From Candidatus Bathyarchaeota archaeon (GTDB taxonomy: Archaea > Thermoproteota > Bathyarchaeia > Bathyarchaeales > Bathycorpusculaceae): DNA of 64,000 nt. Shown one piece after another: positions 1 through 19,476 of this stretch (position 1 is its first letter; every line of letters starts with the position of its first letter). The DNA lies in the NCBI GenBank assembly GCA_963826715.1, contig CAWGYA010000002.1, forward strand, positions 288,001-352,000. The letters run 5' to 3'. The translations under genes were made by a program, and so were the position numbers. Under the pieces are notes generated by a model. That model was not told the DNA's origin, did no database searches, and saw only the letters and a program-made list of their open reading frames with translations.

Positions 1-262
1 GGTTAAGCTTGTAGAGAGTCTTGGTACTACGAACTGCTTTGTCGATTATGTAGGGTAAGACTTTAATGACATTGTAGTTGTATGCGAGTTTTAATATTTC
101 TGGATAGAGATCTTCGCGCTTCTTTGAAGTAAGCAGTTTGGAGTCTTTGACCCCAAGAGCCGCCAATTGAGACAGGTTATCAGATTGCACCGCTACGCCT
201 GCGACTACCAAAGGTCCAACCACGCAACCTCGCCCCGCTTCATCGACACCAGCAATCAACAC
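1..262 (-). CDS. rnhB: Ribonuclease HII (N-terminal part; runs off the window edge)
   Basis: Hand translation from GTG at 262: MLIAGVDEAGRGCVVGPLVVAGV...GVKDSKLL; contains the RNase HII DEAGRG and DSK motifs. Confidence 0.93.
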   Translation of the reverse strand, partial: MLIAGVDEAGRGCVVGPLVVAGVAVQSDNLSQLAALGVKDSKLLTSKKREDLYPEILKLAYNYNVIKVLPYIIDKAVRSTKTLYKLN

Positions 263-379
263 GTCCCAATTCTCACCCGTTTAAGAGTGACATTACTTTT
301 TCTATGCTATATTGCTTTTCCAAAACTGCAATCAGAAAAAAAATTACACAAAGGAGCTATCAAAAAATTTAATATTAAA

Positions 380-1078
380 TCAGGATTTCTGCGCTACAAT
401 CATGGCATGGGCCTTATCATATGGGTCCAAGGGCACAATTTCTTTGACATCAAAACCGCGTTTACGCAAAACCCTCGCTTCCTGTTGATAAACAGCCTCA
501 GGAACCATCGTAACATCGATGCTCTGCGACTTACATGCTAGCATAACCCAGCCTTGAGGTTTGAGGAAAAAGTCTGCATTATCCGCCAAAAGCTTTGCTT
601 GCTCAGGCTGGGCTACGTCACAATATATCGTATCCACTTTGCCACTGATGAACATAGCGTAACGTTCGGGCATCCGGGCATCCTCCAACATAGGTGAAAT
701 GTTAGTTCGGAAAGTAGCAACATTATTGACTAAATCCCTAAGTGATCGCTGTGCAAATTCTATACAATACACATGCCCTGACTCGCCCACAATGTCTGAG
801 ACGTGACTTGGAGTGGTCCCTGAAGCAGCGCCCAAATACAGCACCTTAAAACCAGGTTCAATGGGCACATTCTGCACGCCCTTAATGATTGCTCCTGCAA
901 GTTTGCTCCGAAAAGCATCCCACACACGATATTCGACACGCCTGAATTTGACCAGACGTTCGCCATACACGTTATGACCAGGTATGAGGTTTTCTGTGCC
1001 CAGTCGCTTAGAGCCGTCTTCAAGAAGGATTTGGTAGATTTCTTTGAATTTATCGTTCGGCTTTACTCTAATGCCCAC
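380..1078 (-). CDS. flpA: Fibrillarin-like rRNA/tRNA 2'-O-methyltransferase
   Basis: VYGE, YRVWDAFRSKLAGAI, VLYLGAASGTTPSHVSD and DVAQPEQA motifs; probable GTG start at 1078 overlapping the nop5 stop (the longer ORF start lies inside nop5). Confidence 0.96.
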   Translation of the reverse strand: MGIRVKPNDKFKEIYQILLEDGSKRLGTENLIPGHNVYGERLVKFRRVEYRVWDAFRSKLAGAIIKGVQNVPIEPGFKVLYLGAASGTTPSHVSDIVGESGHVYCIEFAQRSLRDLVNNVATFRTNISPMLEDARMPERYAMFISGKVDTIYCDVAQPEQAKLLADNADFFLKPQGWVMLACKSQSIDVTMVPEAVYQQEARVLRKRGFDVKEIVPLDPYDKAHAMIVAQKS

Positions 1079-2531
1079 GAGTGTCTCTCCATTGCTTGCG
1101 CCTACGTTTGCCCCCTCGAGGTGGACCCTCTCGTGGAGGTTTAGGCGTGAATGGCCGTTGTTGGTTATCTTTTGGCGGACCTTGAGGTTGAGGGGGTTCT
1201 CTATTTTGGCTACTTGGTTGGCTTTGTCCATCTCTTGGAGGTACTCGATATGTGAAGCGTTTTTCGCCTCCATCTTCTGAACGACGGTCTCTGCCACGAT
1301 CGAATCGGCGTTCTCCACCGTGCCTGCGATCAAAGCCACCTTCGCGTTGAGGTCTTGGTGTAGGTTCTTTTGGCGGTGGAGGATCCTTATATTTCTGGTG
1401 AATCTCCTCTATGCGCCTGTTAATTTCTGCCTTAAGATCGTCTCCTATAAAGTGTCCTTGTCCGAATACATCTGCACGTGCAGCTATGGCAAGTTTGCCT
1501 GCGATAACCCGCGCAATCTTTCCCCTTTGCCAACGCTTTGCATCATGCAAAAGATTGTGTTGGAAGATTAAGCCATGTTTGGGAGGCCTCGCACCTGTTT
1601 TCAGCGAGCGGAAAAGTGCTTTCTCTGCCCCTAAAACTTGAATAGTGCTGGCGGGTCTCATAGCGAGGTTCTGGAGGCTACCCGCAAAAGAGATTAGACG
1701 TGCGCCCAGGAGCGCCCCTGCGACGGCACGCACGTTAGGAGCCATCTCTTCCATGGTGCGGTCTACGTAGTCTTCCATACTTTTTCGGAGCTCATAAAAA
1801 GCGAGTACATCTTTGGCAAGGGCTTGAATTTGAATTAAATCTGTGCCTGCAATATCTGCACCCATAGAGTTTTCTGCAGCTTTTGCAATGTTTGCAGTCC
1901 GTTCTTTGGGAATGTTCTCAGCTTCTAAACCCTCTTCTGTAAAGCTTTCTTTATCACCGATGTTCAAGACGAGCCGTGCATAAGTTTCATGTTTCTCAAC
2001 TAGGCGATCAAGCTCGGGGAAGTAGACGCCATACCATTCGCGTAGTCTACCCATGAAGAGGTTAACTGTTTGGTCAAGACTGTCGAGTGTTTGGATACCC
2101 TGAGATACGATTAAGTCACGTTTCATTGTTGCGCCTTTAATTCGGAGTTTTGCGAGTTCCATGGCGACATTGCGGTTCCAGATACTTAGTTCAGACTCGT
2201 CTGCAGCGAAACCTGATTTCAACGCTACTTCAGCCATCAGGGAATTATGAACAGCGACTTCTGAAGGCTTTGCAACCTCAACTGTCACATCCATTTTGCG
2301 TTGGGTTTCTTCTGCCAATTTGGCATCTGTAAAGACAAACACGTCGTAACTTGTATTTTTTAGTAGAGAAATCAGTGATGTTGTTTGGTCTGAGAGTTTA
2401 CCAGTTTCGGCGCGGAGCAAGCTCTTAGCTGCTGCCTGCGGTTTTTTTGGAAAAAGTGCTTTTTCGACAAGTTGGTTTTTGTCGTCAAAGGCGGCTACGC
2501 CGAAAGGAAACTGTACGATGAATGCTTTCAT
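1068..2531 (-). CDS. nop5: C/D box RNP subunit Nop5 (Nop56/58) with long low-complexity C-terminal tail
   Basis: RLREWYGVYFPEL, PASTIQVLGAEKALF and PKHGLIFQH Nop-domain motifs; directly upstream of fibrillarin. Confidence 0.96.
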   Translation of the reverse strand: MKAFIVQFPFGVAAFDDKNQLVEKALFPKKPQAAAKSLLRAETGKLSDQTTSLISLLKNTSYDVFVFTDAKLAEETQRKMDVTVEVAKPSEVAVHNSLMAEVALKSGFAADESELSIWNRNVAMELAKLRIKGATMKRDLIVSQGIQTLDSLDQTVNLFMGRLREWYGVYFPELDRLVEKHETYARLVLNIGDKESFTEEGLEAENIPKERTANIAKAAENSMGADIAGTDLIQIQALAKDVLAFYELRKSMEDYVDRTMEEMAPNVRAVAGALLGARLISFAGSLQNLAMRPASTIQVLGAEKALFRSLKTGARPPKHGLIFQHNLLHDAKRWQRGKIARVIAGKLAIAARADVFGQGHFIGDDLKAEINRRIEEIHQKYKDPPPPKEPTPRPQREGGFDRRHGGERRFDRGRDRRSEDGGEKRFTYRVPPRDGQSQPSSQNREPPQPQGPPKDNQQRPFTPKPPREGPPRGGKRRRKQWRDTRGH

Positions 2532-2818
2532 ACCTCTGTGCCCCAGTAAACTATGTATTGTCAACACCTTTAGTTATAAATAGTTTCTTTGCCAGCCGAG
2601 GTGTTCATGTATGGGTGGGATACAAAACGAAACCTGCAAATGAGATTATTGCGGTTGCATTCGAACCAACAAACTTTTGAATCTTCGCTATTCTTTGTAA
2701 ACCCCAATTTTAGGACAGATTTGTCTTTTCAAGTTGTTACGAATGTGTTTCTTTATAATCAATCGTTATGTGGCTCAAAACAGTTAATACATACGACCAT
2801 AAAATATTCGAATTAAGG

Positions 2819-3721
2819 ATGGAAATAGGAATAACCGCAAATACAACCCCAAATAAAGTCACAGTTGCATTAATCCAGACAACAGTTTCAGAGAACATAG
2901 CTAAGAATATTCAAAAGACCCAGCGCAGAGTCGAAGAAGCCGCGCATGGGGGCGCCCAAATCATCTGTCTACAAGAACTCTATCGTACTCGCTACTTCCC
3001 ACAGGAGGAGCATCGTGACGTCGCAGATTTGGCGGAGTCCATCCCAGGTGAATCTACCGATGTCCTCGGCAAACTCGCAAAACAACACAGCGTTGTTATC
3101 ATTGCACCTCTGTTTGAAAAGGGAAGCGACAACAAATTCTACAATTCCGCCGCAGTCATAGGCGCAGACGGACAAGTCATGGGGGTTTACCGCAAAATCC
3201 ACATACCCTATGACCCCTACTTCTTTGAGAAAAACTACTTCACACAAGGCACAAACCCCTACAGAGTCTATGATGTGGGGTGCGCTAAAATCGGGGTGCT
3301 CATCTGTTATGATCAATGGTTCCCCGAACCCGCACGCATCAACACCCTGAAAGGGGCAGAAATTATTTTTTATCCCACAGCCATCGGTTACGTCAAAGGC
3401 TACAACAGTGCGGATGGCGACTGGCATGACGCCTGGCGAACCGTGCAGAGAGCACACGCCATTGCAAATGGCGTCCATGTGGCAGCAGTGAACCGAGTCG
3501 GTGAAGAAGATGAGCTGGAGTTTTGGGGCAGCAGTTTTGTCTGTGACGCCTTCGGCAAGGTCGTTGCAGAAGCCAGTAATCAAACCGAGCAAACCCTAAT
3601 CGTGACCGTTGACCTTTCTAAGAACAAACAAATCCAAGAGGGCTGGGGCTTTCTTCGTAATCGACGCCCCGATACATACCTGAAACTAACAGAGAAACTG
3701 AGAGGCACCTCAGATGAATAG
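2819..3721 (+). CDS. aguB: N-carbamoylputrescine amidase-like carbon-nitrogen hydrolase
   Basis: Nitrilase triad motifs CLQELY, YRKIHIP and ICYDQWFPE; overlaps agmatine deiminase; start uncertain (ORF opens at 2768). Confidence 0.85.
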   Translation: MEIGITANTTPNKVTVALIQTTVSENIAKNIQKTQRRVEEAAHGGAQIICLQELYRTRYFPQEEHRDVADLAESIPGESTDVLGKLAKQHSVVIIAPLFEKGSDNKFYNSAAVIGADGQVMGVYRKIHIPYDPYFFEKNYFTQGTNPYRVYDVGCAKIGVLICYDQWFPEPARINTLKGAEIIFYPTAIGYVKGYNSADGDWHDAWRTVQRAHAIANGVHVAAVNRVGEEDELEFWGSSFVCDAFGKVVAEASNQTEQTLIVTVDLSKNKQIQEGWGFLRNRRPDTYLKLTEKLRGTSDE

Positions 3722-4760
3722 CGGAAAAGCCTGCCGTGAACTTGGTTTCTGCATGCCCGCTGAGTGGAAACGTCATGATGCAATTTGGCTTGCTTGGCCC
3801 TACGACCCCACAACCTTCCCTAACCGAGTTGAGCGAGTCGAAAGCACTTATGTGCAGATTATTAAGGAAATCCATGAAAGCGAACACGTCAATCTGTTTG
3901 TCGTCGATGACCCCACAAGGAAAAAGGCTACTCAACTCTTCGATGAAGCAGGCATAGATCAATCCAAAGTGGACATTTTAGTTTCCGATTATGCAGATGT
4001 ATGGTTCCGCGACTATGGCCCTATCTTTGTCCGTAACCCCCGCCACGAATTAGCGATGATCCATTGGGACTTTAATTCTTGGGGCGAAAAATACGAAACT
4101 CTGCTAAAGGACCGAGAAATCCCATCTGTCATCAACGAGAGGATGAAGGTTAGGTGCTTCAAACCAGGCATTGTTTTGGAAGGGGGTTCAATTGAAGTTA
4201 ATGGCGAAGGGACGCTACTGACTACAGAGCAATGCTTGCTTAATAACAATCGGAACCCGCACCTAAATAAACAGAAAATCGAACAGTACCTAATGGATTA
4301 CTTGGGCGTTACCCACTTCATTTGGCTCAAACGCGGAATCCTGGGGGATGACACCGACGGGCACATCGATGACCTGGCGCGCTTTGTGAACCCAACTACC
4401 ATTGTCTGTGCCTACCAAGATGATCCAGCCGAAGCTGATTATGAAGCGCTTAGAGAAAACTATAAGGTCCTCAGCCACGCAACTGATCAAGACGGGGAAA
4501 AAATTAATATCATTAAATTACCCATGCCCAAAGTCATCAGTGACGAAGATGAGCAACTTCCCGCCAGTTACACCAACTTCTACATAGGCAATACCAAAGT
4601 ACTTATGCCCACCTTTGACCATCCTAATGATTTAGCAGCACTGTCTATTTTGCAAGAACAATTTCCGACACGCAAAGTGGTCGGTATCCGATGCACAGAT
4701 TTAGTTTATGGTTTTGGCACCCTACATTGTATTAGTCAGCAGCAGCCTTGCCCTATTTAG
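3714..4760 (+). CDS. aguA: Agmatine deiminase
   Basis: MPAEW, WFRDYGP, LEGGSIEVNGEG, DTDGHID and GTLHCISQQQP motifs. Confidence 0.93.
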   Translation: MNSGKACRELGFCMPAEWKRHDAIWLAWPYDPTTFPNRVERVESTYVQIIKEIHESEHVNLFVVDDPTRKKATQLFDEAGIDQSKVDILVSDYADVWFRDYGPIFVRNPRHELAMIHWDFNSWGEKYETLLKDREIPSVINERMKVRCFKPGIVLEGGSIEVNGEGTLLTTEQCLLNNNRNPHLNKQKIEQYLMDYLGVTHFIWLKRGILGDDTDGHIDDLARFVNPTTIVCAYQDDPAEADYEALRENYKVLSHATDQDGEKINIIKLPMPKVISDEDEQLPASYTNFYIGNTKVLMPTFDHPNDLAALSILQEQFPTRKVVGIRCTDLVYGFGTLHCISQQQPCPI

Positions 4761-5158
4761 ACAGCCCAATACTATATAGCAAAAACTATATTTGCCACCC
4801 ATCCCTCTTTTTGGAAAAAAGCTCGCCTGGATACCACTAATTGCGGGGTCAATATATTATTTGGCAAGTTAATCTTCTTGAGATTGACAACTGACACTAC
4901 AACATATAGTAACTAATTTAAAAAATCATTAAGATTCGAACTAATTGTCGCATCAGAAATTAAAAAGGAAAAAGTAACTTAACTTTTAAAATATTTAGAC
5001 CTGCTTGAGATATATAACGACATGACAGGGGCAATTTCAGCAGAAGTACATCAAACCCTTTCAATCGAAACCTCAAATGACTTACTATAAAGATGAAACC
5101 TGGGTTCATAAATCATATATTTAATTTATCTTAGTATTCAATTAATGGAAGCTATCAC

Positions 5159-5314
5159 ATGACAAAATGTCCAAAATGTGGAAAAGAAGTAGACCCTAAT
5201 AAGAATTATAAGACAGCAATAAAAACGGATGAATCTACAGAAAAGAGCTTCATAACATTCGGTATGTGCGAGGACTGCGCGCTAATATTAATTTTAAAGA
5301 TGCAAAAACAATAA
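5159..5314 (+). CDS. Small zinc-ribbon protein (51 aa, not in ORF track)
   Basis: Hand translation MTKCPKCGKEVDPNKNYKTAIKTDESTEKSFITFGMCEDCALILILKMQKQ; two CxxC; TATA-like AT tract upstream. Confidence 0.6.
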   Translation: MTKCPKCGKEVDPNKNYKTAIKTDESTEKSFITFGMCEDCALILILKMQKQ

Positions 5315-5433
5315 TAAGACTCTTGCCACACCCGCTAAGCTCTTTATTTTAAGTGCACTTGGTTTAAAACATATTGAAAAAAATTGAAGCAATAGACTTA
5401 TAATCCAAGTCAAACCAATAAAAGCCGAAGTGC

Positions 5434-5655
5434 GTGGATAAAATGGAAAGAAAGCTAAAAATTATACCGGAACCAAACAAAGGAACACAAACCATTTTTG
5501 CATCTAAAACAGTGCCAGTAATAAAAAGTAAAGGTGGTAATACTACTTATCTATGTGGTAACTGTGGAGCAAAGATAGGCGAGACTATCATTGAAGGCAA
5601 ATTCAAAAATGTTGTGTTAAAATGCCCAAAATGCAACCTTTACAACGAAATATAG
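5434..5655 (+). CDS. Small zinc-finger protein
   Basis: CGNC...CPKC motifs in a 73-aa ORF. Confidence 0.65.
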   Translation: MDKMERKLKIIPEPNKGTQTIFASKTVPVIKSKGGNTTYLCGNCGAKIGETIIEGKFKNVVLKCPKCNLYNEI

Positions 5656-5663
5656 TTTAGGTA

Positions 5664-6087
5664 TCAATGTTTAACATTCGAACAACATCAATGAAACCAA
5701 TTTTTTCGCCCTCTTGATCCCTCAAAAAAGAAGTCGTTACTTCTATTTTTGATTCTTCCCCATTCTTTAACACAACCCTATATTCATTACTCATATATCT
5801 TGATTATTCATTATTGCAGTAATAGAACGTTGAACAGCCAGACTTCTTTCTTCCTTAACCAAAAACTCAAGATAGTGCTTGCCTATAAACTCGCTTTTAT
5901 CATTTGCACCAAAAATATTTACAATTAATTCGTTTACGTCAGAAATGTAGCCATATAAGTCACCGACCAATATGCCATCACCTGCATTTTTGCTTGACGC
6001 AAACAGATCTTGATCAATTTCAAATTCTATTCGACCGTTTCTGTCAACTATCGAAATAAACTCTGCTTGCTTGACTGCTTTAGACAT
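5664..6087 (-). pseudogene. PAS-domain protein, frameshifted
   Basis: DGILVGDLYGYISDVNE...EFIGK PAS core; the PAC-like end (EYRVVLKNG...EVTTSFLRDQEGEKIGFIDVVR) continues in other frames past the stop at 5791. Confidence 0.6.
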
Positions 6088-6264
6088 ATTGAAATATTTT
6101 TCGATCGATTAAAAAAATGTTTCGACGCTACTTCACAACACAAAGCCTTCCACCTATTTTATTCAAAAATGATAATTCTTTCTTGATCTAACTCAATTTT
6201 TGAACTAACAACATTTCTTTGAGATAGTTTAACTTATAATAGTTGAGGATATGTCGCAGGTTGT

Positions 6265-6906
6265 TCATTGTAAATATTTCTGGGGATTAATTTTGAGTCT
6301 TTTGCATAACTCTAGAAACACAGCCAAACGTTCTGTTCTATCTTCAGTATTAAAACGTAGAAAGAAAGGACGTTGTTCCATGTCAAAAGGGTCCTTCGCT
6401 GCCCCAAATAAGTAAAAAAGCATTGCAACAAAAAGAACTGCCACATCACCTTTCCGGGCCAACAATCCTGCGATTAAGGCTTCTTTGATTTCTGGAGGAT
6501 GATATTCTATTATATCATCGAGTATTTGGGAGAGCCCAGTGAACACCTCTGCGTTTTGTAAAGCATCTAAAAATAGACAAACTTCTCTCACTATCCGAGA
6601 CCAAATCCGGAGCAAACCGTGTAACTGCAACGCGAACAGAAGGGTCAGGGTCCTTTATGGCTTGCTTTAAAGTTTTTTTAGCCCTTTCGGTATTAATTTG
6701 TGCAAGCGCTTCAATGCCGCGCCAATCACGAGAGCTATGATTGATTAATATTTGCTCAATTACCTTGCGTTCGAATGGAGATGCAGATTTTAGCAATCTA
6801 TGTCATAGCCTATGCCGTCGTGCCACTTATCGAAACCTATGATCATACTTTTTTCAAAGCGTTGAAGGGGAGTAGTTGGACGAAATTGATCATTACCAAT
6901 TGACAC
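6265..6906 (-). pseudogene. HEAT-repeat-like protein split by two frameshifts
   Basis: Three consecutive frame segments join (FDKWHDGIGYD / LKQAIKDPDPSVRVAV / EQRPFFLRF). Confidence 0.6.
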
Positions 6907-7061
6907 TTTAGTTTCCTCTTGGTGTTTTGAAGTTATCGATTACAAACAAGAATCATAAATAGGCTATTAAATGATCATTTTGGTGAAGTTAAGTTTAAAC
7001 TCTCCAGTGGAATAATAGGTAGAACACCACCAGTTTGGGCGTAAAGGGGAGAGAATGGTTT

Positions 7062-9278
7062 ATGGTTAATGCTCAGCCTAATCGCAGCCGCGGCGTCAAA
7101 GTTCTAAAAGCCGTTTCCTCACCCATGCGGCTGCAAATCCTTAATTTGCTATTCGATAAAAGTGCCCTATCTTATAGCGAACTCATGACTCAGCTCAAGA
7201 TGAATCCCAGCAGAGACGCAGGAAGATTTGCCTACCACCTCAAATTCCTCCTCAAAGCTGGGCTATTAGAGGCAGATGTAGAAGCAAAAAAATACTATCT
7301 AACCGACCTCGGCAAAATGGTGCTTGATGTAGCAGACCGAGTTGAGAAGAAAGCCGTTAAACCGCGCGGTATGCTTGTGCGCACGTCTCATTTAACGCTG
7401 GAAGAGTTTGATGCAAACAAAATCGCTAATTCTCTTATCAAAGAAGCAAAGGTACCAGCTGAGCTCGCCCAGAAAGCTGCAAAAGAAGCCGAGAAGCGCC
7501 TAGTGAAATCTAAAACCAAGTACCTTACAGCGTCGCTTATCCGCGAAGTCGTCAATGGCATCCTCGTAGAGAAAGGCTATGAAGAATATCGCCACAAACT
7601 CACTCGGGTGGGCATGCCAGTTCATGAAGTAACTGCACTCATTGAATCCAAAGATGCCGCACAGGACTGCTCAGTCGCCATCAGTCGGGCGGGACAAACA
7701 GTGCTGGGGGAATATACGCTACTAAACATTTTTCCCCGAGACATCGCCGACGCACATCTATCCGGCGCCATCCATATAGACAGCTTAGGCACATGGCTGT
7801 TAAAGCCCAATGAGGTCGTGCATGAACTGCGCTATTTCTTTATGCACGGCATCCAACCTGCTAACCCTCAGCAAGTCAAAATGGAAGCGCCTGACAACTT
7901 CAAATCCGCTCTCTCTGCAGCATTCAATGTACTTTTACATGCTAGTAGAGAAATCAATTGCACACAGACCTTCAACTATATCAATCTCGCGCTCGCACCT
8001 TTCGCACGGGGCAATGACGAGACTAAGCTTAAAGAGAACCTGAGACTGTTTATCTTAAACATTAATCAACATGTTGACGCTACGCTGGGGTTGGATCTCT
8101 CAATTTCCAACTCTACCGCCGAAAAGGAGGCCTTTGGCGCGCGGGGAAAAGCTGCAGGAAAGTATGGTGACTATGTTAAAGAAAGTCACTTGTTGGCCTC
8201 GTTAATTCTGGATGTATTCATTGAAGAGAGCTCCGCTAGACCGTTACTTAATCCCAAACTCATAATAAAAATCGCCCCCGAAACTTTAACAGATGAGAAT
8301 GCGAAGGCACTTTTTCAAAAAGCCCATCAGTTAGCACATCAGGGTGGAACCCCCTACTTCGCCAATCTCACAAAAAAAGGCTCGGAGAACTGGGCTTTTA
8401 CTTCTTCAGGAGCCAAATTCTCTTCCGACCTGACAGGAGACTGGGAAACCGATACATTACGTACAGGCGCCCTTGGCTGCGTTAACATAAACCTACCACG
8501 TATAACGTTGGAATGCGAGGGGAATAAAAACAAATTCATCGACTACCTAAAAGAACGCTTTGAACTCTCAGCACGAGCCCTAGGCATCAAAAATAACGCG
8601 TTAAAGCAGTTCGGCAAAAACGCGCTGCCATTTCTCTTACACAAATCTAACGGTGATACCTACTTCCGGCTAGAGAACTGCTCACGCATCGTGAATTTAG
8701 CAGGGTTCTGCGAAGCAATAGAATCTTTTACCGCTAAAAACATAAACGCCCCTGAAAGCCGCCAATTCGCCGAGGAAATAATCGCTAGCCTGCTGTCGTT
8801 TAAGCAGAAGTTGGGCAGAAAATACGGCAGACGACTCTACCCCGCAATCTTGGGTAATCGTGAAGCTGCCGAGCGTCTAGCCCAGCTCGACATCGAACGC
8901 TACGGCTTAGCAAAAGTTAAGTTCTCGGGGACACGCGACAAACCCTACTACTCAACGGTTAAACGTATCCAAATCAAAGCCGCCCCGACACTACTAGCGC
9001 CTGTTGGGACAATGGAAACAGCCCAACTCACAAAGGGCTTAATTGTAGGAGGGAGCCTTGATATACTCGAACTTCAAGGATCAGAATTTTCAGCAGAAGC
9101 ACTAATGGATTTAACTCGGCGAATAATTGAGAACGACACAAGCGAGTTCTTCACATACAATCGCGCGATAAGTTTTTGCGAAAACTGTAAGAAAAACTAT
9201 TACGGCACGTTACACAAATGCCCTAATTGCGGGGCTATGAGCACTCTAACAACATTTGACCGCTTTGCAACAACCTAA
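7062..9278 (+). CDS. ArsR-type wHTH + ATP-cone + class III ribonucleotide reductase (NrdD)-like fusion, apparently catalytically degenerate
   Basis: LKAVSSPMRLQILNLL...YHLKFL (wHTH); EEFDANKIANSLIKE...TASLIRE (ATP cone); ADAHLSGAIHI, LRTG..G.VNINLPRI and C-terminal CxxC..CxxC (NrdD); no terminal RxxGY. Confidence 0.85.
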   Translation: MVNAQPNRSRGVKVLKAVSSPMRLQILNLLFDKSALSYSELMTQLKMNPSRDAGRFAYHLKFLLKAGLLEADVEAKKYYLTDLGKMVLDVADRVEKKAVKPRGMLVRTSHLTLEEFDANKIANSLIKEAKVPAELAQKAAKEAEKRLVKSKTKYLTASLIREVVNGILVEKGYEEYRHKLTRVGMPVHEVTALIESKDAAQDCSVAISRAGQTVLGEYTLLNIFPRDIADAHLSGAIHIDSLGTWLLKPNEVVHELRYFFMHGIQPANPQQVKMEAPDNFKSALSAAFNVLLHASREINCTQTFNYINLALAPFARGNDETKLKENLRLFILNINQHVDATLGLDLSISNSTAEKEAFGARGKAAGKYGDYVKESHLLASLILDVFIEESSARPLLNPKLIIKIAPETLTDENAKALFQKAHQLAHQGGTPYFANLTKKGSENWAFTSSGAKFSSDLTGDWETDTLRTGALGCVNINLPRITLECEGNKNKFIDYLKERFELSARALGIKNNALKQFGKNALPFLLHKSNGDTYFRLENCSRIVNLAGFCEAIESFTAKNINAPESRQFAEEIIASLLSFKQKLGRKYGRRLYPAILGNREAAERLAQLDIERYGLAKVKFSGTRDKPYYSTVKRIQIKAAPTLLAPVGTMETAQLTKGLIVGGSLDILELQGSEFSAEALMDLTRRIIENDTSEFFTYNRAISFCENCKKNYYGTLHKCPNCGAMSTLTTFDRFATT

Positions 9279-9280
9279 AC

Positions 9281-10291
<1,011 letters not shown>

Positions 10292-10555
10292 TCAAGGCGT
10301 CTCATTTTTGTAGGTCTGAGTCATAAAGCAGGGGATTTAGTCTTTTTCAACCCTAAAGACAGAAGTAACGATAAAACCACTTGTGCCCTTTGGACTACAC
10401 TAACCTATGACACTAAACTCTGCTCATACAAAGAAGCAAGGGAACTAACAGGAATTTAACGCCTTCATGACTTATGTTAGACGTAATTTTGGTAAGGTTT
10501 CCTGTTATAAAGTGTTTGAATCCGTCGAAAACGGTTATCCCCTCATCATTGTATA

Positions 10556-10837
10556 TTGCTCTTTAAAGAATACACTTTCCAAGTGTTTAGAGACGACAAA
10601 GGTCAATTCAGAGTACATGCCCAAAAAAACGATTTAATAGTCAATCTCCCCAACAACCCCAAAACAAAACGATTTTATAGCAAATTCCTTAAAGGGTGGG
10701 GTCATCCACTACGACGACTGAGACGCTTTAAGCCCCTAAAGTGGAGGGCTGGAGTTTGGTGCATCGCTCCTGTTGCCGCAATCAGTTTTGAATGGATTAT
10801 TTTTTATCTAACATTGCGCATTAGTAGTTGCCTATGA
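10556..10837 (+). CDS. Hypothetical protein (3' half may be non-coding)
   Basis: 93-aa ORF; its 3' half coincides with the repeated motif at 10687-10763. Confidence 0.25.
   Translation: MLFKEYTFQVFRDDKGQFRVHAQKNDLIVNLPNNPKTKRFYSKFLKGWGHPLRRLRRFKPLKWRAGVWCIAPVAAISFEWIIFYLTLRISSCL
10687..10763 (+). repeat. Left copy of an ~80-bp motif; inverted homolog at 13303-13387
   Basis: Blocks TAAAGGGTGGGGTCATCCRCTACG, GCTTT(T)AAGCCCC and GTGGRGGGCTGGAGTTTGGKGCA are shared with the reverse complement of 13303-13387. Confidence 0.85.
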
Positions 10838-10908
10838 CGATTAACACGTCAGTCTGAGATGGGATCGGTAGTCCCTGAGATGATGACGGTTATACGAATT
10901 CTGAGGCA
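10829..10908 (+). ncRNA. Box C/D-like sRNA with three D boxes
   Basis: C-like ATGACGA 10834-40; CTGA at 10854, 10875 and 10901; ATGATGA 10880-86; terminal TGCC/GGCA stem; TATA-like TTTTTATC ~25 nt upstream. Confidence 0.65.
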
Positions 10909-11421
10909 CAAACTCTCATTCTTAAGTTTAAACTCATTATATTAACTTGAAATCAGTTGCCCCATGATAACAAGTGCACAAAAGTACTCGATACTACCAT
11001 TTCTTTTCTTAGCTTTCTTTACAAAAGAAAGCGTCAATCATTGGCGAAGGCGAGCGAAGCGCGCCAATCACTATAAAGAAAAGTTTCTTCAAAGTCATTA
11101 TTTGATAACTTTTCTGCGCTCAACCAGAGCAGCTAAAAGTTGACTGATATCTACACTATCAATCTTTCTTCTGGTTGCTTCAATCAAGTTGTAAGTAAAA
11201 AATTTGTAATTAGACCACAAAAAAATTTCTTCAAGAAATTCTATCTGCAAATCTGTGATTTCTTTGTTATTCTTAATTTGCTCTAAAATGTGCAGAAAAG
11301 AACGCAGACTAAAATCATGAATAACATCTAAAATGATTAAATGAACTTCGTTTTTTCCAGCAATGCATCTATATTTTTAGAGAATTCTTCTCTAAATAAA
11401 CAGTTTGGCGTTTAGAATACA

Positions 11422-11700
11422 CTATTTTTTCGATTCAATTAGAATTTTTAAAACCAGTTTAAGTGCAGAGTCATAGCCATCACAATATTCTTTGCTCGCG
11501 TCCTTATCCGCATAAGTTTGCTCTACAATTTCTTTTCCGATGCCTTCATTAGTTAGCTGGATTGAGCCTTCTTTAAGCCAAATCAAAGCATCTACATACC
11601 CATGTTCTGAATCTGAAAGCTCATCTGTTATAGATGATTCTGCTTTCTGTCTGATAATTTCTTCAATCTTTTCTATTAACTCATTCTTAACATTACTCAC
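11422..11700 (-). CDS. Hypothetical protein with internal GYxxAL repeat
   Basis: 92-aa ORF; SEHGYVDALIWL / EYCDGYDSALKLV; SD-like GGTGA upstream. Confidence 0.6.
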   Translation of the reverse strand: MSNVKNELIEKIEEIIRQKAESSITDELSDSEHGYVDALIWLKEGSIQLTNEGIGKEIVEQTYADKDASKEYCDGYDSALKLVLKILIESKK

Positions 11701-11831
11701 TTCTTTTCACCAATTCGATTACTTGTTTGTCATATAGTTAAATAGCTGTCGGCTAACCCATCGCGCTTCAGTAAACCTTATTAAAAAACATTTGTTAAGA
11801 CCTTGAAAAGCCCGCTTTCCATTTATTAAAA

Positions 11832-11854
11832 TGCATGGGTGGGATTTGAACCCT
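11832..11854 (-). repeat. tRNA 3'-end fragment (att-site-like remnant)
   Basis: Reverse complement AGGGTTCAAATCCCACCCATGCA resembles a T-arm plus acceptor 3' strand; no 5' half present. Confidence 0.55.
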
Positions 11855-11980
11855 ATGACTAGTGGAGATGTCACCCGAACACTTCATTATTAGTTAGATT
11901 TTTGAAGTTATTGATATACCGATATTGTTAATGTGATTATTAAATAAAAGTCTTTCACGATCGTAGTTAATGAGAAAAGG

Positions 11981-12706
11981 TCACTGTGTACAGATAGTGG
12001 TCTTTCGATGCCTTCTAAAAAAAAGAGATAACAAGATAATGGTGGATAGAACAATGGCTATTGTGATGCTTGTAGGCAGTAAGTAATCTATCGGCTCTAA
12101 ATGTGGTGCATTTATTGGTGGAAAATAATCCATACTTGCTTGGTGTATGGAAACCCTTGAAGTGGCCCCTGTTATGGTTATTCCAATATTAGCTCCACTC
12201 CAACCATCGCCTTGCTGTTTAGCTACTCCATCGATGTAGACGTCAGGGGTTCTTGTTGGTGAATAAGAACTATACAGGTAAGTATAATCCACAGTTTGGT
12301 TACCTCTTCCTTCTATTGTGTAATTGAGCCATGAGTCAGTATAATTGGTATATTGTTCTGAGCCGTTTCTGGTTAAGTAATTGAATGAAGTAATGGTTAA
12401 GTTGCAATTGTTGGCAGAAATCGTTAGGTCAACTGTTCCATTTCCTGTTGAGAAATTAGTAAAAATCCAAAAAGGTGGCACATAAAGCCCATTGATGGTA
12501 TTATAGTGAGCAGGATAATATGTAGCTCTGGTATTAGACGCATTTTCTGAAAGCATTATTATGGCGTTAGTATCTGGAATGGTATACTGGTTATCCGTGT
12601 CTTTTGTGCTTTTAGCATTTACTGATTGACAGGTAGTCAATGAACTAAGGAATATAATAGTAAGCAGTAAAGCCAAAGTTCTGTTCTTGCTACCCATACC
12701 AATCAT
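11981..12706 (-). CDS. Secreted/membrane-anchored surface protein, paralog of 34920-35594
   Basis: Signal peptide, many N-x-S/T sites, C-terminal TM helix with basic tail. Confidence 0.8.
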   Translation of the reverse strand: MIGMGSKNRTLALLLTIIFLSSLTTCQSVNAKSTKDTDNQYTIPDTNAIIMLSENASNTRATYYPAHYNTINGLYVPPFWIFTNFSTGNGTVDLTISANNCNLTITSFNYLTRNGSEQYTNYTDSWLNYTIEGRGNQTVDYTYLYSSYSPTRTPDVYIDGVAKQQGDGWSGANIGITITGATSRVSIHQASMDYFPPINAPHLEPIDYLLPTSITIAIVLSTIILLSLFFRRHRKTTICTQ

Positions 12707-12808
12707 TATAACATATGGATGATAAAAGGCTAATCATAAAAGATTCTTGACGAATTTAAGTCGGGCTTCTTGACCAAATGCGCTCGCTCAATCTGTTTTG
12801 GAGCAGAA

Positions 12809-12958
12809 TCAAGAGGATTGAAGAACCAAATTGTCGCCTTCAAGTTTCCAAAAACGTTGACGACCAGAAGCCGACCGCCTTAATCTTTTCAAAGGAACAC
12901 TACCCACATGAAAGCCACCTTGATTCCCTTTTTTAGAAATCCTCAAAACTACCTTCAA
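12809..12958 (-). CDS. AbrB/SpoVT-like microprotein B (49 aa, not in ORF track)
   Basis: MKVVLRISKKGNQGGFHVGSVPLKRLRRSASGRQRFWKLEGDNLVLQSS; TTG start immediately after the stop of its paralog. Confidence 0.65.
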   Translation of the reverse strand: MKVVLRISKKGNQGGFHVGSVPLKRLRRSASGRQRFWKLEGDNLVLQSS

Positions 12959-13102
12959 TTAACACGACTCCAAAACAAGCCATTCCCCTTCCAAAGACCA
13001 AGCCAATTTACGACCAGAAGCTAACTGTTTCAATTTTTTCATAGGAACGCTACAAATCCGAGAACCATTCGGAGTAGTAGTCACTTTCAATAAGACCTTC
13101 AA
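12959..13102 (-). CDS. AbrB/SpoVT-like microprotein A (47 aa, not in ORF track)
   Basis: MKVLLKVTTTPNGSRICSVPMKKLKQLASGRKLAWSLEGEWLVLESC; GAGGA upstream; clear homology to the adjacent ORF. Confidence 0.65.
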   Translation of the reverse strand: MKVLLKVTTTPNGSRICSVPMKKLKQLASGRKLAWSLEGEWLVLESC

Positions 13103-13211
13103 ATCAAGCTATCCTCATCAAATTACCTATCCCATTTCCTTGATTTATGCTTTATTATCGTGTATTATTAGTGATATTTCTTAGTGAGATTTGTTATATA
13201 TTATCAAGTGA

Positions 13212-13421
13212 AGGTCGTGGCGCTCACGCGCCCGACGACGACGCTAAGCCGTTGGTAGCGCAACGATGCACTCCTTGAGTGCATTTCAAAGTGATAGTAG
13301 CTTGCCCCAAACTCCAGCCCCCCACCTCAAGAGGGGGGCTTAAAAGCAACCGACACCTCGCGTAGCGGATGACCCCACCCTTTAGGGTACCCCCCCGCAC
13401 GCAAGGGCTCTGTCGGTTGCA
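13212..13421. other. GC-rich multi-hairpin non-coding block (origin or ncRNA candidate) containing the right copy of the ~80-bp motif
   Basis: Stems GCAACCGACA/TGTCGGTTGC, AGCCCCCC/GGGGGGCT, TGCACTC/GAGTGCA and GGCGC/GCGCC. Confidence 0.7.
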
Positions 13422-13479
13422 CGCTGGTTTAGTGTTTGAAGCGAATACTACTGAAGTTGATTTTATACGAACGTTAAAC

Positions 13480-14751
13480 CTATTCCTTTTTTGGTTTAAT
13501 GTACCCTGACTTTAGCTTCTCAGCATCTTTTTTGAATTTCTCAGCAAACTCTGGATCTTTCGCTAACTTGTCAGCTACTTGCTCCACTATGCCCTCAGCC
13601 ATTTCCTTGTAACTCTCTGAATTTGCTATTTGCTTAACCATGTTGCCCAAAGCAACGAGCTCGCTTTTCACTACCTCAAGCTCCTCGCCTTTTTCGTCAA
13701 GTTGCTTCTTTATCTTTTGATTTTCCTCAGAAATCACATCCGTAATTGTTCTTTGCTCAGTCAAATCGCTTTGAAGCTTGTTTATGGCATTTTTCAGCGG
13801 TTCAATTTTCTCAAGATCTAATCTTGGCTGTTCTTTTATGCTTAGAAACTTCTTTAATTGAATAAACTTCTGCCTCAGATTAACAGTTGTTAAATAGGTA
13901 TCGTCTGACTGCGCTATGGCTTTTCCACACAACTTCTTTCCAGCAGTCAATCCTATCCCACTGTCAATAGATGCCGAGAGAAACATTTTCCTAAAACAAT
14001 GAAACGAAATACACTTGCCATTAAGGTTAATCTTTGCTTTTTCTGCTAACCGTTGCAAGAGCTTGTTTAGCCACTCATCCGAGATACTTCTGCTTCCATT
14101 AGACGGGAAAAGGTAAGGATTACCATTTTTACGCTCCAAAGTTGGCAAATAGACTTTAAGAAGGTCAACTGTCTCTTGGCTAAGAAAACCATACGCTAAA
14201 ACTCCCTCTTTTGTAGTCATAATCTCAAAAGATATTGGTGGTTCCTGATCTAAAGGGGGCAAATCAGATTTTTTAAGCTCAATGAAGTCGCCTATCCTTA
14301 AGCCTAAATCCGTTGCCATGCTCAAAATTACTCTTTCTCGCAGGTCAGCAACTTCAAACATTTTACGCACATATTCAATCGTTAGAGGGAAATTCTTGGT
14401 TGTTTTAACCGTTTTACCTATTTTGCTTCCATTTCTAAAGCGTATGGGCATTTCATAGTATCTGAAAAGTTGCCTAATTCCTAAAGTCTGAACTCTTGCT
14501 GTGTTGATGCTTCCTTGCGTCAAAAGATGGCTATGGAACTTTTCTATTTCCTTTTCAAATCTTGATGCTCTATTTCTGAAATCAATTAGGTTTTCACCTC
14601 TTAGCTGTGTGAGGTCTTCTTTTCTTAGTTCAAGGATTTGTTCAGCTGTTTTTCCGTACCATTCACAGAATTTTTTTAGTCCATGTCTGTAACATTTTCT
14701 TGTTTTTGGGTTTGATATTGATTCAAGGAAGACTTGACTACTCAATTCCAT
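13480..14751 (-). CDS. Tyrosine recombinase/integrase with C-terminal coiled coil
   Basis: GLRIGD (R), FHCFRK (HxxR) and DTYL (Y); SAM-like N-terminus. Confidence 0.9.
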   Translation of the reverse strand: MELSSQVFLESISNPKTRKCYRHGLKKFCEWYGKTAEQILELRKEDLTQLRGENLIDFRNRASRFEKEIEKFHSHLLTQGSINTARVQTLGIRQLFRYYEMPIRFRNGSKIGKTVKTTKNFPLTIEYVRKMFEVADLRERVILSMATDLGLRIGDFIELKKSDLPPLDQEPPISFEIMTTKEGVLAYGFLSQETVDLLKVYLPTLERKNGNPYLFPSNGSRSISDEWLNKLLQRLAEKAKINLNGKCISFHCFRKMFLSASIDSGIGLTAGKKLCGKAIAQSDDTYLTTVNLRQKFIQLKKFLSIKEQPRLDLEKIEPLKNAINKLQSDLTEQRTITDVISEENQKIKKQLDEKGEELEVVKSELVALGNMVKQIANSESYKEMAEGIVEQVADKLAKDPEFAEKFKKDAEKLKSGYIKPKKE

Positions 14752-14849
14752 TCATCCACACTCCATATATTTTGTGTGGTATATCAAACTACCTCAAAAA
14801 CCGACTAATAGTTTAGTGTACACCCGCATTATCCTTTTTTATTGCTTGG

Positions 14850-15022
14850 CTACTCACTTTTCGGCATTTCAAAAGTAATGTAATGGCGAATAAGCTAAAA
14901 CCATCATTGATATGACCTCAAGCCCAGATAATTCTGGTATACAGTTGGCGAAGGTGTAGGTATTACAGTTGGTGAAGAAGTGTTTGTTGATGTTTATTGA
15001 GTAGGGTTCGTTGTGGGGTGTG
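14850..15022 (-). pseudogene. C-terminal remnant of a Thr/Pro-linker, PEF/PEL-CTERM-like surface protein
   Basis: Broken frames give TSSPTVIPTPSPTV / PELSGLEVISMMVL / LFAITLLLKCRK. Confidence 0.4.
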
Positions 15023-15116
15023 TAAGAAAAACACGCCAGAAAAGCTAACCTATGCTAAGACGTCAATTGGGAAACTTTTCTGTTTAGCGGATAATTAGAA
15101 AAGCCTTTTAAGGCAC

Positions 15117-15404
15117 TTGGACTCCCAAAGGGAAGCGGGGGGAACTATAATTAATCGTTTAGAGGCAGTGGATTTTCTCAAAGAGGTTTATGCAACATTC
15201 GGGGAAACACTGACGATCTCATCAGCGTGGCTAAGTCCCTCATCCAAAACAGGTGTTAACGACCCACAAGATTACGACATAGTTCTAAACGCAGAATTCA
15301 ACGAAGTCGAAATTAAAAGTATTAATTTGGTACTAAAAAATCATAATCTGGAAATGAAAAAGGAACAGAAGGGATGGTTAATTTTTAAAACAACAAATAG
15401 TTAG
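15117..15404 (+). CDS. Hypothetical protein
   Basis: 95-aa ORF with protein-like composition; start uncertain. Confidence 0.55.
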   Translation: MDSQREAGGTIINRLEAVDFLKEVYATFGETLTISSAWLSPSSKTGVNDPQDYDIVLNAEFNEVEIKSINLVLKNHNLEMKKEQKGWLIFKTTNS

Positions 15405-15529
15405 TTTGTCTGTTATATTCTGCAGCAAAACACGCTTAATTCAGGTTCTGGTTGGAAACATTTTTACCACACCATTTTTAGTCAAATAACCTGTGGCTCA
15501 TTAAATTGTTAATATTAGACTGATGATTT

Positions 15530-16441
15530 ATGGGAAAACTCGAATGCAAAAACTTAACCAAGGTTTATGCTGAAAACCAAACCGCTCTCGACCATGTCTC
15601 TTTTTCTGTTGAAACAAAAGGCATATTTGGGTTAATCGGCAGAAATGGTGCAGGAAAAACTACTCTTATCCGCATCTTAGCCACTGAATTGCTGCCCACC
15701 TTAGGAACCGCAAATATTAACGGCATAGATATCCTCACCCAAATGGGGAAGTTACGGGAGAAAATCGCTATTGTTCCTCAGGAAGCCCGAGCAATCCGCT
15801 GGATGACGCCCAAACAAACCGTTTTCTCTTATTTGCTCTGGCGTGGATACAGCTATCGAGAAGCTAGCAAACGAGCGTGTGATTCCCTAGCTAAACTGGG
15901 GTTAACGCAGTATTCAGGAATGCTCAACAGTCGACTCTCTGGAGGAACCAAAAGAAAAGTTCTAATAGCAACCGTAACCGCATCGGAAGCCGATATTATC
16001 TTCCTCGACGAACCAACTACAGGGCTTGACCCGATTTCCAGGCGTGAACTATGGACAATTCTACGTGACCTCGGAAAGGATCGCTTCATTTTTCTAACAA
16101 CACATTATCTTGAAGAAGCAGAGCAACTTGCGGATAAAATAGGCATTTTAAAGGAAGGCAAACTGGTTTCGGTGGGCAATCTCGGAGAATTAAGGACAAG
16201 TGTACCATACCAGTATAGTATAAAGTTGCTACCAAATGTGGAGATCCCCAGCATAGACAATGCGGAAGTCACAACCAGCAGTAGCGGTTTTACCCAAATA
16301 ATGACTAATGAAGCAGAAGCATTCCGTCTGGCAAAATTGCTTTCAGAGAAGGGCACAAAATTCTCCATAACCCCTGTTACCCTGGATGACATTTTTTTCC
16401 ATTTGGTGGGGCAGAAAGTGAGGGATGAAGCTGAAGCATAG
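15530..16441 (+). CDS. ABC-2 type transporter ATP-binding protein
   Basis: GRNGAGKTT, LSGG, IFLDEPTTGLD and TTHYLEEA motifs. Confidence 0.92.
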   Translation: MGKLECKNLTKVYAENQTALDHVSFSVETKGIFGLIGRNGAGKTTLIRILATELLPTLGTANINGIDILTQMGKLREKIAIVPQEARAIRWMTPKQTVFSYLLWRGYSYREASKRACDSLAKLGLTQYSGMLNSRLSGGTKRKVLIATVTASEADIIFLDEPTTGLDPISRRELWTILRDLGKDRFIFLTTHYLEEAEQLADKIGILKEGKLVSVGNLGELRTSVPYQYSIKLLPNVEIPSIDNAEVTTSSSGFTQIMTNEAEAFRLAKLLSEKGTKFSITPVTLDDIFFHLVGQKVRDEAEA

Positions 16442-17174: not shown

Positions 17175-17177
17175 ATG

Positions 17178-17429
17178 TCAATATTTTTTACCCAATGTCA
17201 GTTTCTTTCGGATTTCCATAACCTCAGATGCATTGTCAGCTAAAGCATTAAGCCAGAGATCAAACTCGTCTTCAGAGATTTCTTTTTGAATTATACCCTC
17301 TTGATCGCCAGAGAAATATCTGGAAGGAGCAGCAGAAAAAAGTTTAACGTAAAATATTCTGTCAGCTATCTCAATCTGTGAGGAGCAACAAACATTCTCG
17401 CCTACACAGTAATCAATATGGTATCCCAT
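17178..17429 (-). CDS. Hypothetical protein
   Basis: 83-aa ATG ORF convergent with the permease. Confidence 0.55.
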   Translation of the reverse strand: MGYHIDYCVGENVCCSSQIEIADRIFYVKLFSAAPSRYFSGDQEGIIQKEISEDEFDLWLNALADNASEVMEIRKKLTLGKKY

Positions 17430-17721
17430 TGGTAACCCATTCTGGAAGTGCCAGCTTATTTACTTAAAATTTTCCCAACAAAAATGCAATTTTATCAGAG
17501 ATTACGTTAAGTCAAAAAACCTTTCGCTCATTCCAATATTGCCTTCTGTCAGTCTGTACATATTAGGCTTAAAAGGCAAATATATTCATGTCCTGATCAT
17601 TATCTCCCTTATTTCATGCAAAATCTACTGGATATTCGAAGTGCACCGTTGATAAATCAGATCATTAAACGGTATCAGATTATATTGGCATTCAGAAATC
17701 CAATCGAACACTGACGGTGAG

Positions 17722-19329: not shown

Positions 19330-19476
19330 CCACGCTTCTCTGATTAGGTAGTAAATAACAGTTTATGCTTATATTCCTTAAACATAAGGATCCATATAAT
19401 CCATTTTTTTAATCGCGTGCAGTAGTTTGGGTAGAAAATGTTTAATGCATCTAAAGATAATTCTAGTGGATATAAT

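Follow-up and report, generated by a model that had tools for sequence, protein, structure and literature searches.

Why should an archaeon keep a full-length anaerobic ribonucleotide reductase (RNR) that carries a DNA-binding domain at its start and stops at the place of its radical glycine? The question is raised by a gene in a stretch of 64,000 nucleotides (nt), called the window below, from Candidatus Bathyarchaeota archaeon GCA_963826715.1 (CAWGYA010000002.1, positions 288,001-352,000; contig C2). The gene encodes a protein of 738 amino acids (aa) in which an ArsR-type winged helix-turn-helix (wHTH) domain is followed by an ATP-cone and by the body of a class III RNR (NrdD) without its catalytic residues; the protein is referred to here as the dead NrdD. 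Most likely it is a regulator, so far undescribed, of genes for nucleotide synthesis. That it is, more precisely, a dimeric, nucleotide-responsive transcription regulator made from a dead class III RNR is the reading towards which we lean, with some reserve; its DNA binding, dimerisation, ligand sensing and targets we infer from alignments, gene neighbourhoods and a predicted structure.

Gene and domain architecture

The gene lies in a single open reading frame (ORF) at 7035-9278 on the forward strand (Table 1). The frame opens at a TTG, and the ATG at 7062 (MVN...) is the start common to the same-genus orthologues, 20 of 21 of which begin MV and one MS. The winged helix passes the cut-offs of two Pfam families, DUF7347 (31.8 bits, cut-off 27.6) and HTH_5 (28.4 bits, cut-off 22), and the ATP-cone passes that of PF03477 (30.2 bits, gathering cut-off 25.8). 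The NRDD family matches residues 205-731 with 207.8 bits; as this match begins at profile position 11 and ends at position 535 of 562, the C-terminal part of the profile is missing from the protein. The NrdD equivalog model TIGR02487 scores 212.2 bits, below its cut-off of 326, whereas the real NrdD of the same genome reaches 577 bits. The stop codons of the gene and of the convergent pyrB, whose ORF begins at 9281 on the reverse strand, are 2 nt apart. A preliminary description of the stretch, made from its letters alone, had read the same order of wHTH, ATP-cone, NrdD-like body and C-terminal Zn motif, on which Pfam and the alignments agree, and had placed the pyrB stop 2 nt away, as does the ORF listing.

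Loss of catalytic and substrate-contact residues

Judged by its aligned residues, the protein is catalytically dead as a class III RNR and could not work as an NrdD. Landmarks were taken from characterised enzymes: in P. copri NrdD the NxN flap at 114-116, HxHD at 157-160, Cys171, Cys416, Glu581 and Gly711-Tyr712 (PMC11226230); in T. maritima NrdD the finger motif SCCR at 328-331 and Glu495 (bioRxiv 10.1101/2022.04.23.489257); and in T4 NrdD the radical glycine, Gly580 (PMC2795772; all three sources were available in part). Identity to the genome's own active NrdD, P0122, is 23% in BLASTP (E 1e-30), and losses were counted in an alignment of 70 family members with 7 active NrdDs. All 7 active enzymes have Cys at the first-strand position and at the thiyl position of the finger loop, whereas none of the 70 family members has it at either. 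The first of these positions is E251 here, within KPNEVVHEL. The second is A451, within S449-G-A451-K452, where the real NrdD of this genome carries SMCCR; across the family this thiyl position holds 15 residue types. The NxN flap is absent, both Asn occurring in 0 of 70 family members against 7 of 7 active enzymes, with the columns gapped or occupied by other residues. The HxHD motif reads H238-I-D240-S241, its second His and its Asp lost (second His in 1 of 70 against 7 of 7), and the Glu of the TPAE loop is replaced by R600 (Glu in 17 of 70 against 7 of 7).

At the C-terminal end (...FDRFATT*, R734-F-A-T737-T738), Thr-Thr stands at the Gly-Tyr of RxxGY in sequence and structure alignments alike. 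The radical position, T737 here, is Gly in all 7 active enzymes and in 13 of the 70 family members, with Tyr or Phe following in two of the 70. Many distant relatives have a longer tail, which is a recognisable but degenerate glycyl-radical domain, for example GRSSATYAPLELW as against SRITGYLQNISNW in active enzymes. All 70 family members retain the four Zn-binding Cys; among the active enzymes six of seven have Cys at all four positions, and P0122 has C-H-C-C. The preliminary description had picked out the SGAK finger loop, the NEVVHEL segment without the active-site Cys and the DRFATT* end at the place of R-x-x-G-Y by eye. All three readings survive alignment, the last by VIA structure alignment as well, and the comparison with active NrdDs that it had recommended finds other residues at the aligned Gly and Cys positions.

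The fragment P0124 and the protein P0132 were excluded from the 70-sequence alignment (A1). Both have Cys at the finger position and Glu at the first-strand Cys position; P0132 lacks Gly at the aligned radical position, and P0124 ends short of it. Six active NrdD representatives among the matches were aligned and five were scanned with Pfam; none of these five, two of which have two cones, carries an HTH, which would be the intermediate form. Many of the active NrdD matches (P0180, P0181, P0202, P0248, P0250 and others) measure 1000-1700 aa, retain RITGY and align in two to three stretches, which fits inserted elements such as inteins.

Predicted fold

An AlphaFold2 model built on alignment A1 has a mean predicted local distance difference test score (pLDDT) of 88.9 and a predicted template modelling score of 0.80. 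The wHTH domain is modelled with pLDDT 85-91, and the linker between it and the cone (residues 99-102) is of low confidence. Class III RNRs rank first in Foldseek, with 9dca_A at E 2e-26. VIA aligns the model to P. copri NrdD (8p2s_B) with Z 32.9 and a root-mean-square deviation (rmsd) of 2.7 Å across 518 residues, and separates the folds: Z is 29-33 for class III RNRs and about 19-20 for class I RNRs and glycyl-radical enzymes of the pyruvate formate-lyase type. The core class III matches, which leave out model residues 1-103, have an rmsd of 2.2-3.3 Å across 446-521 residues. Both methods place the modelled body in the ten-stranded alpha/beta barrel fold of NrdD. The structure prediction proposed in the preliminary description thus returns a class III RNR fold, and it ends one residue past the radical-Gly position: the last aligned residue of the model, 738, falls on residue 712 in P. 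copri NrdD and on residue 581 in T4 NrdD, each one residue past the radical Gly of that enzyme.

Conservation and selection

The 120 closest protein clusters (72-99% identity, 734-747 aa) are intact and all carry the same four Pfam domains; the named organisms among them are Bathyarchaeota or Bathyarchaeia and, once, Nitrososphaerota. An orthologue is present at E <= 1e-50 in 40 of 41 related genomes, the sole miss being a genome that is 65% complete. Selection was estimated from 21 same-genus orthologues; synonymous sites are saturated in 157 of their 210 pairs. For the 15 pairs that have diverged least, the ratio of nonsynonymous to synonymous substitution (dN/dS) is 0.046-0.136. By domain, across seven pairs, the ratio is 0.025-0.20 for the HTH, 0.022-0.124 for the cone and linker, 0.096-0.137 for the body and 0.021-0.255 for the Zn ribbon and tail. 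The stop codon is at the same aligned position in all 21 orthologues. By these substitution patterns the gene is maintained by purifying selection, and the loss of catalytic residues is old and is not decay. The preliminary description had asked whether the loss is kept under selection; with these ratios, and with the thiyl and first-strand Cys missing throughout the family, the answer is yes.

Damaged copies were seen at G023:C15:47984-49779, with three stop codons and the N-terminal 140 residues missing, and at G004:C4:3071-5032, a second copy with four in-frame TAA codons that accompanies an intact one.

DNA-binding head and ATP-cone

Within the probable recognition helix, G54, F56, Y58, H59 and L60 are either invariant in 70 relatives or kept in at least 90% of them, and from the near-invariance of helix 53-65 we infer sequence-specific DNA binding. 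Of the family's domains the cone is the best conserved: in 60 divergent rows its top-residue frequency averages 0.67, whereas the wHTH has 0.52 and the body 0.39. At least 90% conservation is found in 23 of 74 cone columns and in 15 of the 467 body columns scored. The family-invariant residues include V106, R107, F116, I121, R161, R182, G184 and P186, and R177 is conserved.

The cone opens with V106-R107-T108-S109, which the alignment places with Thr-Ser where canonical cones have a basic pair: the aligned starts are VLKRDS (Lys-Arg) in the genome's own NrdD and VRKKNG (Lys-Lys) in its own NrdR. In the cone of P. copri NrdD a Lys7-Arg8 pair contacts phosphates (PMC11226230). Together with its linker (YLTAPLIRE.VN ... 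EEYRHK.TRLG.PV.D), the VRTS cone corresponds to the second, inner cone of the active archaeal NrdDs P0184 and P0195. In these enzymes a canonical cone precedes the inner one, and in the dead-NrdD family the wHTH stands at the place of that first cone. From its conservation, we read the VRTS cone as a domain that still matters; it may bind a ligand non-canonically or relay a signal.

Distribution and gene neighbourhoods

At E <= 1e-10, a probe of the N-terminal 204 aa has matches in 264 of the phylum's 401 sampled genomes (213 of the 335 of good quality); this is an upper figure, as about 26 of the 264 matches are weak (E above 1e-35) and may be to the cone only. Among the matches listed, 149 of 150 begin at query residue 14 or before, in frames of 502-1096 aa. 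A 50%-identity representative library gives 1576 matches at E <= 1e-3, true NrdDs among them; among full-length relatives that bear an HTH, identity falls as low as about 25-30%. The ESM Atlas, taken only as a lead, has clusters with the same three domains, most commonly in Bathyarchaeota, Nitrososphaerota, Promethearchaeota, Thermoproteota and Nanobdellota.

A full-length FastTree tree, HTH columns included, places 62 HTH rows and P0186 in one clade with a Shimodaira-Hasegawa-like support of 100. In a body-only tree of 56 rows, 25 rows having been dropped by the anchor pattern, 41 HTH rows and P0186 are grouped with a support of only 56. Since the support of 100 includes the HTH columns and the body alone gives 56, a single origin of the HTH family is consistent with the trees and is not established by them.

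The neighbours of the gene were compared within the genus, the order and the phylum. In the genus, 22 of 23 loci have a convergent pyrB next to the orthologue, and the remaining locus is cut by a contig end; pyrB also adjoins the orthologue in L039. In other families of the order the gene is directly upstream of a full-length nrdD, on the same strand, in 8 of 16 genomes. These adjacent nrdDs are the 8 that score 515-543 bits, a line drawn after the data had been seen; the 554-600-bit type, to which the present genome's own nrdD belongs, is never adjacent. Between the gene and nrdD, 4 of 7 fetched loci have an ORF of 88-108 aa with CPRC or CTRC, which by eye looks NrdH- or glutaredoxin-like.

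For the phylum, 20 loci were sampled, one to three per family, and picked before their neighbours were seen. Three have a class I/II-type RNR large subunit downstream in the same orientation (L068, L069, L077), one has nrdD in that position (L079), and two have a co-oriented dCTP deaminase 16-20 nt downstream (L084, L085). The next gene downstream is a convergent pyrB and/or pyrI in nine (L072, L073, L076, L078, L080, L081, L082, L086, L087). A divergent Asp/Orn carbamoyltransferase adjoins the gene in one (L074), and no nucleotide gene is adjacent in the other four (L070, L071, L075, L083).

The genome's own reductase and NrdR

The assembly (2.64 Mb, 8 contigs, 96% complete) contains the separate, intact RNR for which the preliminary description had proposed a search. 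On contig C7, nrdR (TIGR00244, 156 bits), nrdD (NF006126, 1075 bits, with SMCCR and RVVGY) and nrdG (TIGR02495, 182 bits) stand in a row; no class I/II RNR large subunit was found in the genome. This nrdG, adjoining the real nrdD, is the only one in the genome above the cut-off. The window itself has no NrdG-like match, as had been noted from its letters, and the weaker matches on C2, at 21071 and 236500, lie outside C2:288001-352000.

The nrdR promoter was compared across 15 anchorable sequences, consisting of the genome's own and 14 of 20 fetched same-genus stretches. Its conserved order (L001:600-697, on C7) is a TATA-like CTTATATA, a 16-nt box GCGCTAAnTGTAGTGT, a 16-nt spacer and a second box that starts CACTA. 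These boxes are called NrdR-like by comparison with what we take to be the NrdR box consensus. According to the available part of PMC12051234, NrdR sites are built of two 16-bp boxes separated by 15-16 bp. No second copy of the first box occurs in the genome, whose one clear box pair is that of the nrdR promoter, and a genome scan found no NrdR-like box near the dead-NrdD gene. From these boxes, the real reductase of this genome appears to be under NrdR. With NrdR present and apparently serving the reductase operon, the dead NrdD is not a simple stand-in for it here. NrdR was found in 25 of the 401 sampled genomes of the phylum, all 25 in this genome's own family, a confinement which suggests that the nrdR-nrdD-nrdG unit was acquired as a package; two genomes from other families of the order, G027 and G036, have NrdR as well. 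NrdR is described as rare in archaea in the available part of PMC9110341.

Regulatory DNA

The only upstream stretch conserved in the 21 same-genus orthologues is a block at 6984-7027, the flanks of which do not align. It consists of a TATA-like GTTAAGTTTAAAC, about 10 nt, and then GGAATAATAGGTAG. The block looks like a B recognition element (BRE)/TATA element with a second box about 22 nt downstream, and it may be a strong core promoter only, or an autoregulatory site as well. With a 44-nt position weight matrix (PWM) from 17 orthologues, its own site alone exceeds 18 bits in the 2.64-Mb genome; PWMs of the two halves give one and three weak extra matches, in uninformative contexts. A bacterial-type scan for sigma-70 promoters and terminators gave nothing useful.

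In relatives, an element TACAnnnTTTTATAC + N8 + CTAAAAAATTAAA stands before nrdH/nrdD in all 7 fetched loci, where it may serve those genes simply as core promoter. By eye, L077 and L079 have similar elements. Upstream of 20 phylum-level orthologues no shared motif was apparent by eye beyond the TATA-like TTTAAAC.

Two further sequence patterns were noticed near the gene. Three TGATCA words occur in 133 nt upstream of it (window about 6840-6972), one of three such clusters in the genome; each of 20 other same-genus orthologue upstream regions has at most one. Upstream of pyrB, most same-genus genomes (L012, L015, L017, L018, L021 and others) have an inverted repeat GTTGCA...TGTACAAC just before a TATA-like AAAAGCATATAAGC. 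The region upstream of pyrB in this genome differs from that pattern. A phage-integrase-family ORF about 3 kb past pyrB (13480-14751, reverse strand) may be related to the rearrangement here.

Comparison with known systems

The dead NrdD resembles NrdD in its fold, in the ATP-cone before the core and in the four-Cys Zn ribbon at the C terminus, and it keeps the structural motifs AxAHxxG, NLPR and RLAxLD (compared with the solved NrdDs of T4, 1h78; T. maritima, 4coi; P. copri, 8p2s; and S. thermophilus, 9d3x). It differs in its additional N-terminal wHTH, in having no thiyl Cys, first-strand Cys, NxN flap or complete HxHD, in ending with Thr-Thr at the radical-Gly position, in falling below the TIGR02487 cut-off and in not adjoining an activase gene.

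The likeness to NrdR is one of idea. Both join a DNA-binding domain to an RNR-type nucleotide-binding module, near RNR genes in many genomes (the NrdR mechanism is taken from PMC9110341, available in part). However, NrdR (TIGR00244) is a Zn ribbon and an ATP-cone of about 150 aa, whereas the dead NrdD has a wHTH, is five times larger and contains a whole reductase. An NCBIfam scan of the protein gave no TIGR00244 hit, and the basic pair that this genome's NrdR keeps as Lys-Lys is missing from the dead NrdD's cone. With ArsR/SmtB proteins the common ground is residues 14-88, which pass HTH_5 and DUF7347 and weakly match HlyU (4k2e, E 9e-4); the NCBIfam metalloregulator model NF033788 scores 33.2 bits, below its cut-off of 55. 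Typical ArsR proteins are homodimers of about 100-120 aa, while the ArsR-type domain here is a tethered head on a 640-aa body.

Apparently dead two-cone NrdD paralogues without an HTH were also seen (P0198, P0212, P0228, P0263, P0268, P0269, P0273; one or two ATP-cone matches each). They share with the present protein the absence of the aligned thiyl Cys and of the glycyl tail, as well as the retained cone and NrdD body. In contrast to it they have no DNA-binding domain, and most keep HxHD. FastTree splits them into two groups, both placed within the active archaeal NrdDs and away from the HTH family.

Regulators with an enzyme-derived sensor domain are an established sort of protein. In the literature covered, which was available in part and leaves subscription journals largely aside, no account of an HTH-fused or dead NrdD was found, nor any description of the HTH-less dead paralogues. 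The available parts of PMC2795772, PMC3019208, PMC9669993 and bioRxiv 10.1101/2022.04.23.489257 contain no mention of an HTH-fused or dead NrdD.

Proposed function and alternatives

If the protein is a nucleotide-responsive regulator, its NrdD body still folds and probably dimerises as NrdD does. The dimer would place two flexibly tethered winged-helix domains to bind a two-part DNA site. The cone-linker module, the old allosteric site at the dimer interface, or both, would bind an adenine or deoxy-nucleotide and so alter DNA binding, and the protein would in this way tie the expression of genes for nucleotide synthesis to the nucleotide pool. For many relatives the gene that directly follows, an RNR or a dCTP deaminase, would be the likely target. 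Two candidates stand out in this genus: the promoter of the gene itself, which is strongly conserved, and pyrB, its conserved neighbour. As the real nrdD-nrdG operon has its own NrdR, no target is assigned in this genus; that the gene is kept under selection beside pyrB while NrdR apparently serves the reductase points to a role beyond switching an adjacent nrdD.

The preliminary description had proposed an RNR scaffold repurposed as a sensor of (deoxy)nucleoside triphosphates for a transcription factor. The conserved, dead RNR fused to a wHTH stands; the sensing part is complicated by the T108-S109 cone, by the lost NxN and HxHD motifs and by the NrdR already present.

A number of observations weigh against a nucleotide-responsive regulator. 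The cone has lost the canonical phosphate-binding Lys-Arg pair and corresponds to the inner, second cone of active relatives, and with the substrate-contact motifs lost no ligand or ligand site can be assigned. Control of RNR by this protein is not needed here, since nrdR-nrdD-nrdG has its own NrdR and boxes. No operator can be defined, the upstream block and its halves not being convincingly repeated elsewhere in the genome, and TACAnnnTTTTATAC + N8 + CTAAAAAATTAAA has no strict-core match and five loose ones in this genome. The neighbouring pyrB is convergent and not co-transcribed, and its adjacency may be plain synteny. One genome of the same genus, G023 (86% complete), has a broken copy only.

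It may be instead that the protein is a DNA-binding regulator or a chromatin-type protein in which the dead NrdD is a dimerisation scaffold only, and no nucleotide is sensed. We consider this unlikely, though it would account for the loss of the Lys-Arg pair, the NxN flap and HxHD, and for a body that is the least conserved part (top-residue frequency 0.39) and has no identified ligand site. The cone, however, is conserved more strongly than any other domain, 23 of its 74 columns being at least 90% kept. A body of about 530 aa held at a dN/dS of about 0.10-0.14 is costly for a mere dimeriser, and nucleotide-metabolism neighbours are present in 16 of the 20 sampled loci.

A non-catalytic partner subunit, forming a heterodimer with a real NrdD and modulating that enzyme, with an HTH that is autoregulatory or has no DNA role, would suit the 8 of 16 order-level genomes in which the gene is directly upstream of nrdD. 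It is the alternative that the preliminary description had offered. NrdD enzymes are alpha2 dimers (PMC2795772, available in part), and dead two-cone NrdD paralogues exist without an HTH as well. This explanation nevertheless seems improbable here: identity to this genome's NrdD is only 23%, the gene is unlinked from nrdD in this genus, the neighbouring reductase is of class I/II type and not NrdD in 3 of 20 sampled loci, and the near-invariant recognition helix argues for a DNA role.

It is very doubtful that the protein is still an enzyme, its barrel running a non-radical reaction on nucleotides, in spite of a barrel fold predicted at high model confidence and a body under purifying selection. 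All known catalytic and substrate-contact residues have been lost, the thiyl position has 15 residue types in 70 sequences, and of the 467 body columns scored only 15 reach 90% conservation. A new conserved active site does not fit, since the replacements differ from one family member to another. A decaying pseudogene or an annotation or assembly artefact, to which the broken copy in G023 and the extra copy with four in-frame stops in G004 might point, is rejected: an orthologue is present in 40 of 41 genomes at a dN/dS of 0.046-0.136, with the same start region and stop in 21 of 21, and the 734-747-aa frame is intact in the 120 closest clusters.

Other features of the window

The features of the locus are collected in Table 1. 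Elsewhere in the window are ordinary housekeeping genes, a fibrillarin and Nop5 pair (380-2567, reverse strand), and ordinary polyamine genes, a carbon-nitrogen hydrolase adjoining an agmatine-deiminase-type (PAD_porph) gene (2768-4760, forward strand). A tRNA scan of window positions 1-20000 found no tRNA gene. The stretch is present in four DNA sequencing runs, all from one soil study, and in no RNA run listed.

Table 1. Features of the dead-NrdD locus, in window coordinates
Feature	Position	Strand	Basis
Conserved promoter-region block, 44 nt	6984-7027	+	21 same-genus upstream regions
Coding sequence, wHTH + ATP-cone + dead NrdD, 738 aa	7062-9278 (stop included)	+	ORF listing, Pfam, NCBIfam
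ArsR-type winged helix-turn-helix, residues 14-88	7101-7325	+	Pfam DUF7347, HTH_5
Non-canonical ATP-cone, residues 105-176, begins VRTS	7374-7589	+	Pfam
NrdD-like barrel body without catalytic residues, residues 205-731	7674-9254	+	Pfam NRDD, VIA, Foldseek
E251 codon at the first-strand active-site Cys place	7812-7814	+	BLASTP, multiple alignment
Finger-loop remnant S449-G450-A451-K452, replacing SCCR/MGCR	8406-8417	+	Alignments
C-terminal Zn ribbon, C706, C709, C720, C723	9177-9230	+	Alignments
Final residues A736-T737-T738 and stop	9267-9278	+	Sequence and structure alignment
pyrB, aspartate carbamoyltransferase catalytic chain, convergent neighbour	9281-10246	-	Pfam OTCace_N, OTCace

Implications

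Sources name close relatives of this protein 'anaerobic ribonucleoside-triphosphate reductase', sometimes with '(formate)', or 'ArsR family transcriptional regulator'. Because relatives are often named as an active reductase, metabolic reconstructions could wrongly credit an organism with a second, or its only, class III RNR.

Transcription-level control of RNR and of deoxynucleotide supply in most archaea appears unsettled. A nucleotide-sensing regulator of the kind favoured here would fill that archaeal gap, the family being found in up to 264 of 401 genomes as compared with 25 of 401 for NrdR, and it would show plainly that an entire enzyme can become a sensor domain. A broader proposal, which we put forward tentatively and think somewhat doubtful, is that the family serves archaea throughout the phylum as a master regulator of DNA-precursor supply, with two RNR classes, dCTP deaminase and pyrimidine synthesis under its control, and that it arose once from a working anaerobic reductase by gaining a DNA-binding head and losing its radical chemistry. 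If that were true, the dead NrdD would be an archaeal functional counterpart of bacterial NrdR, made from the enzyme itself.

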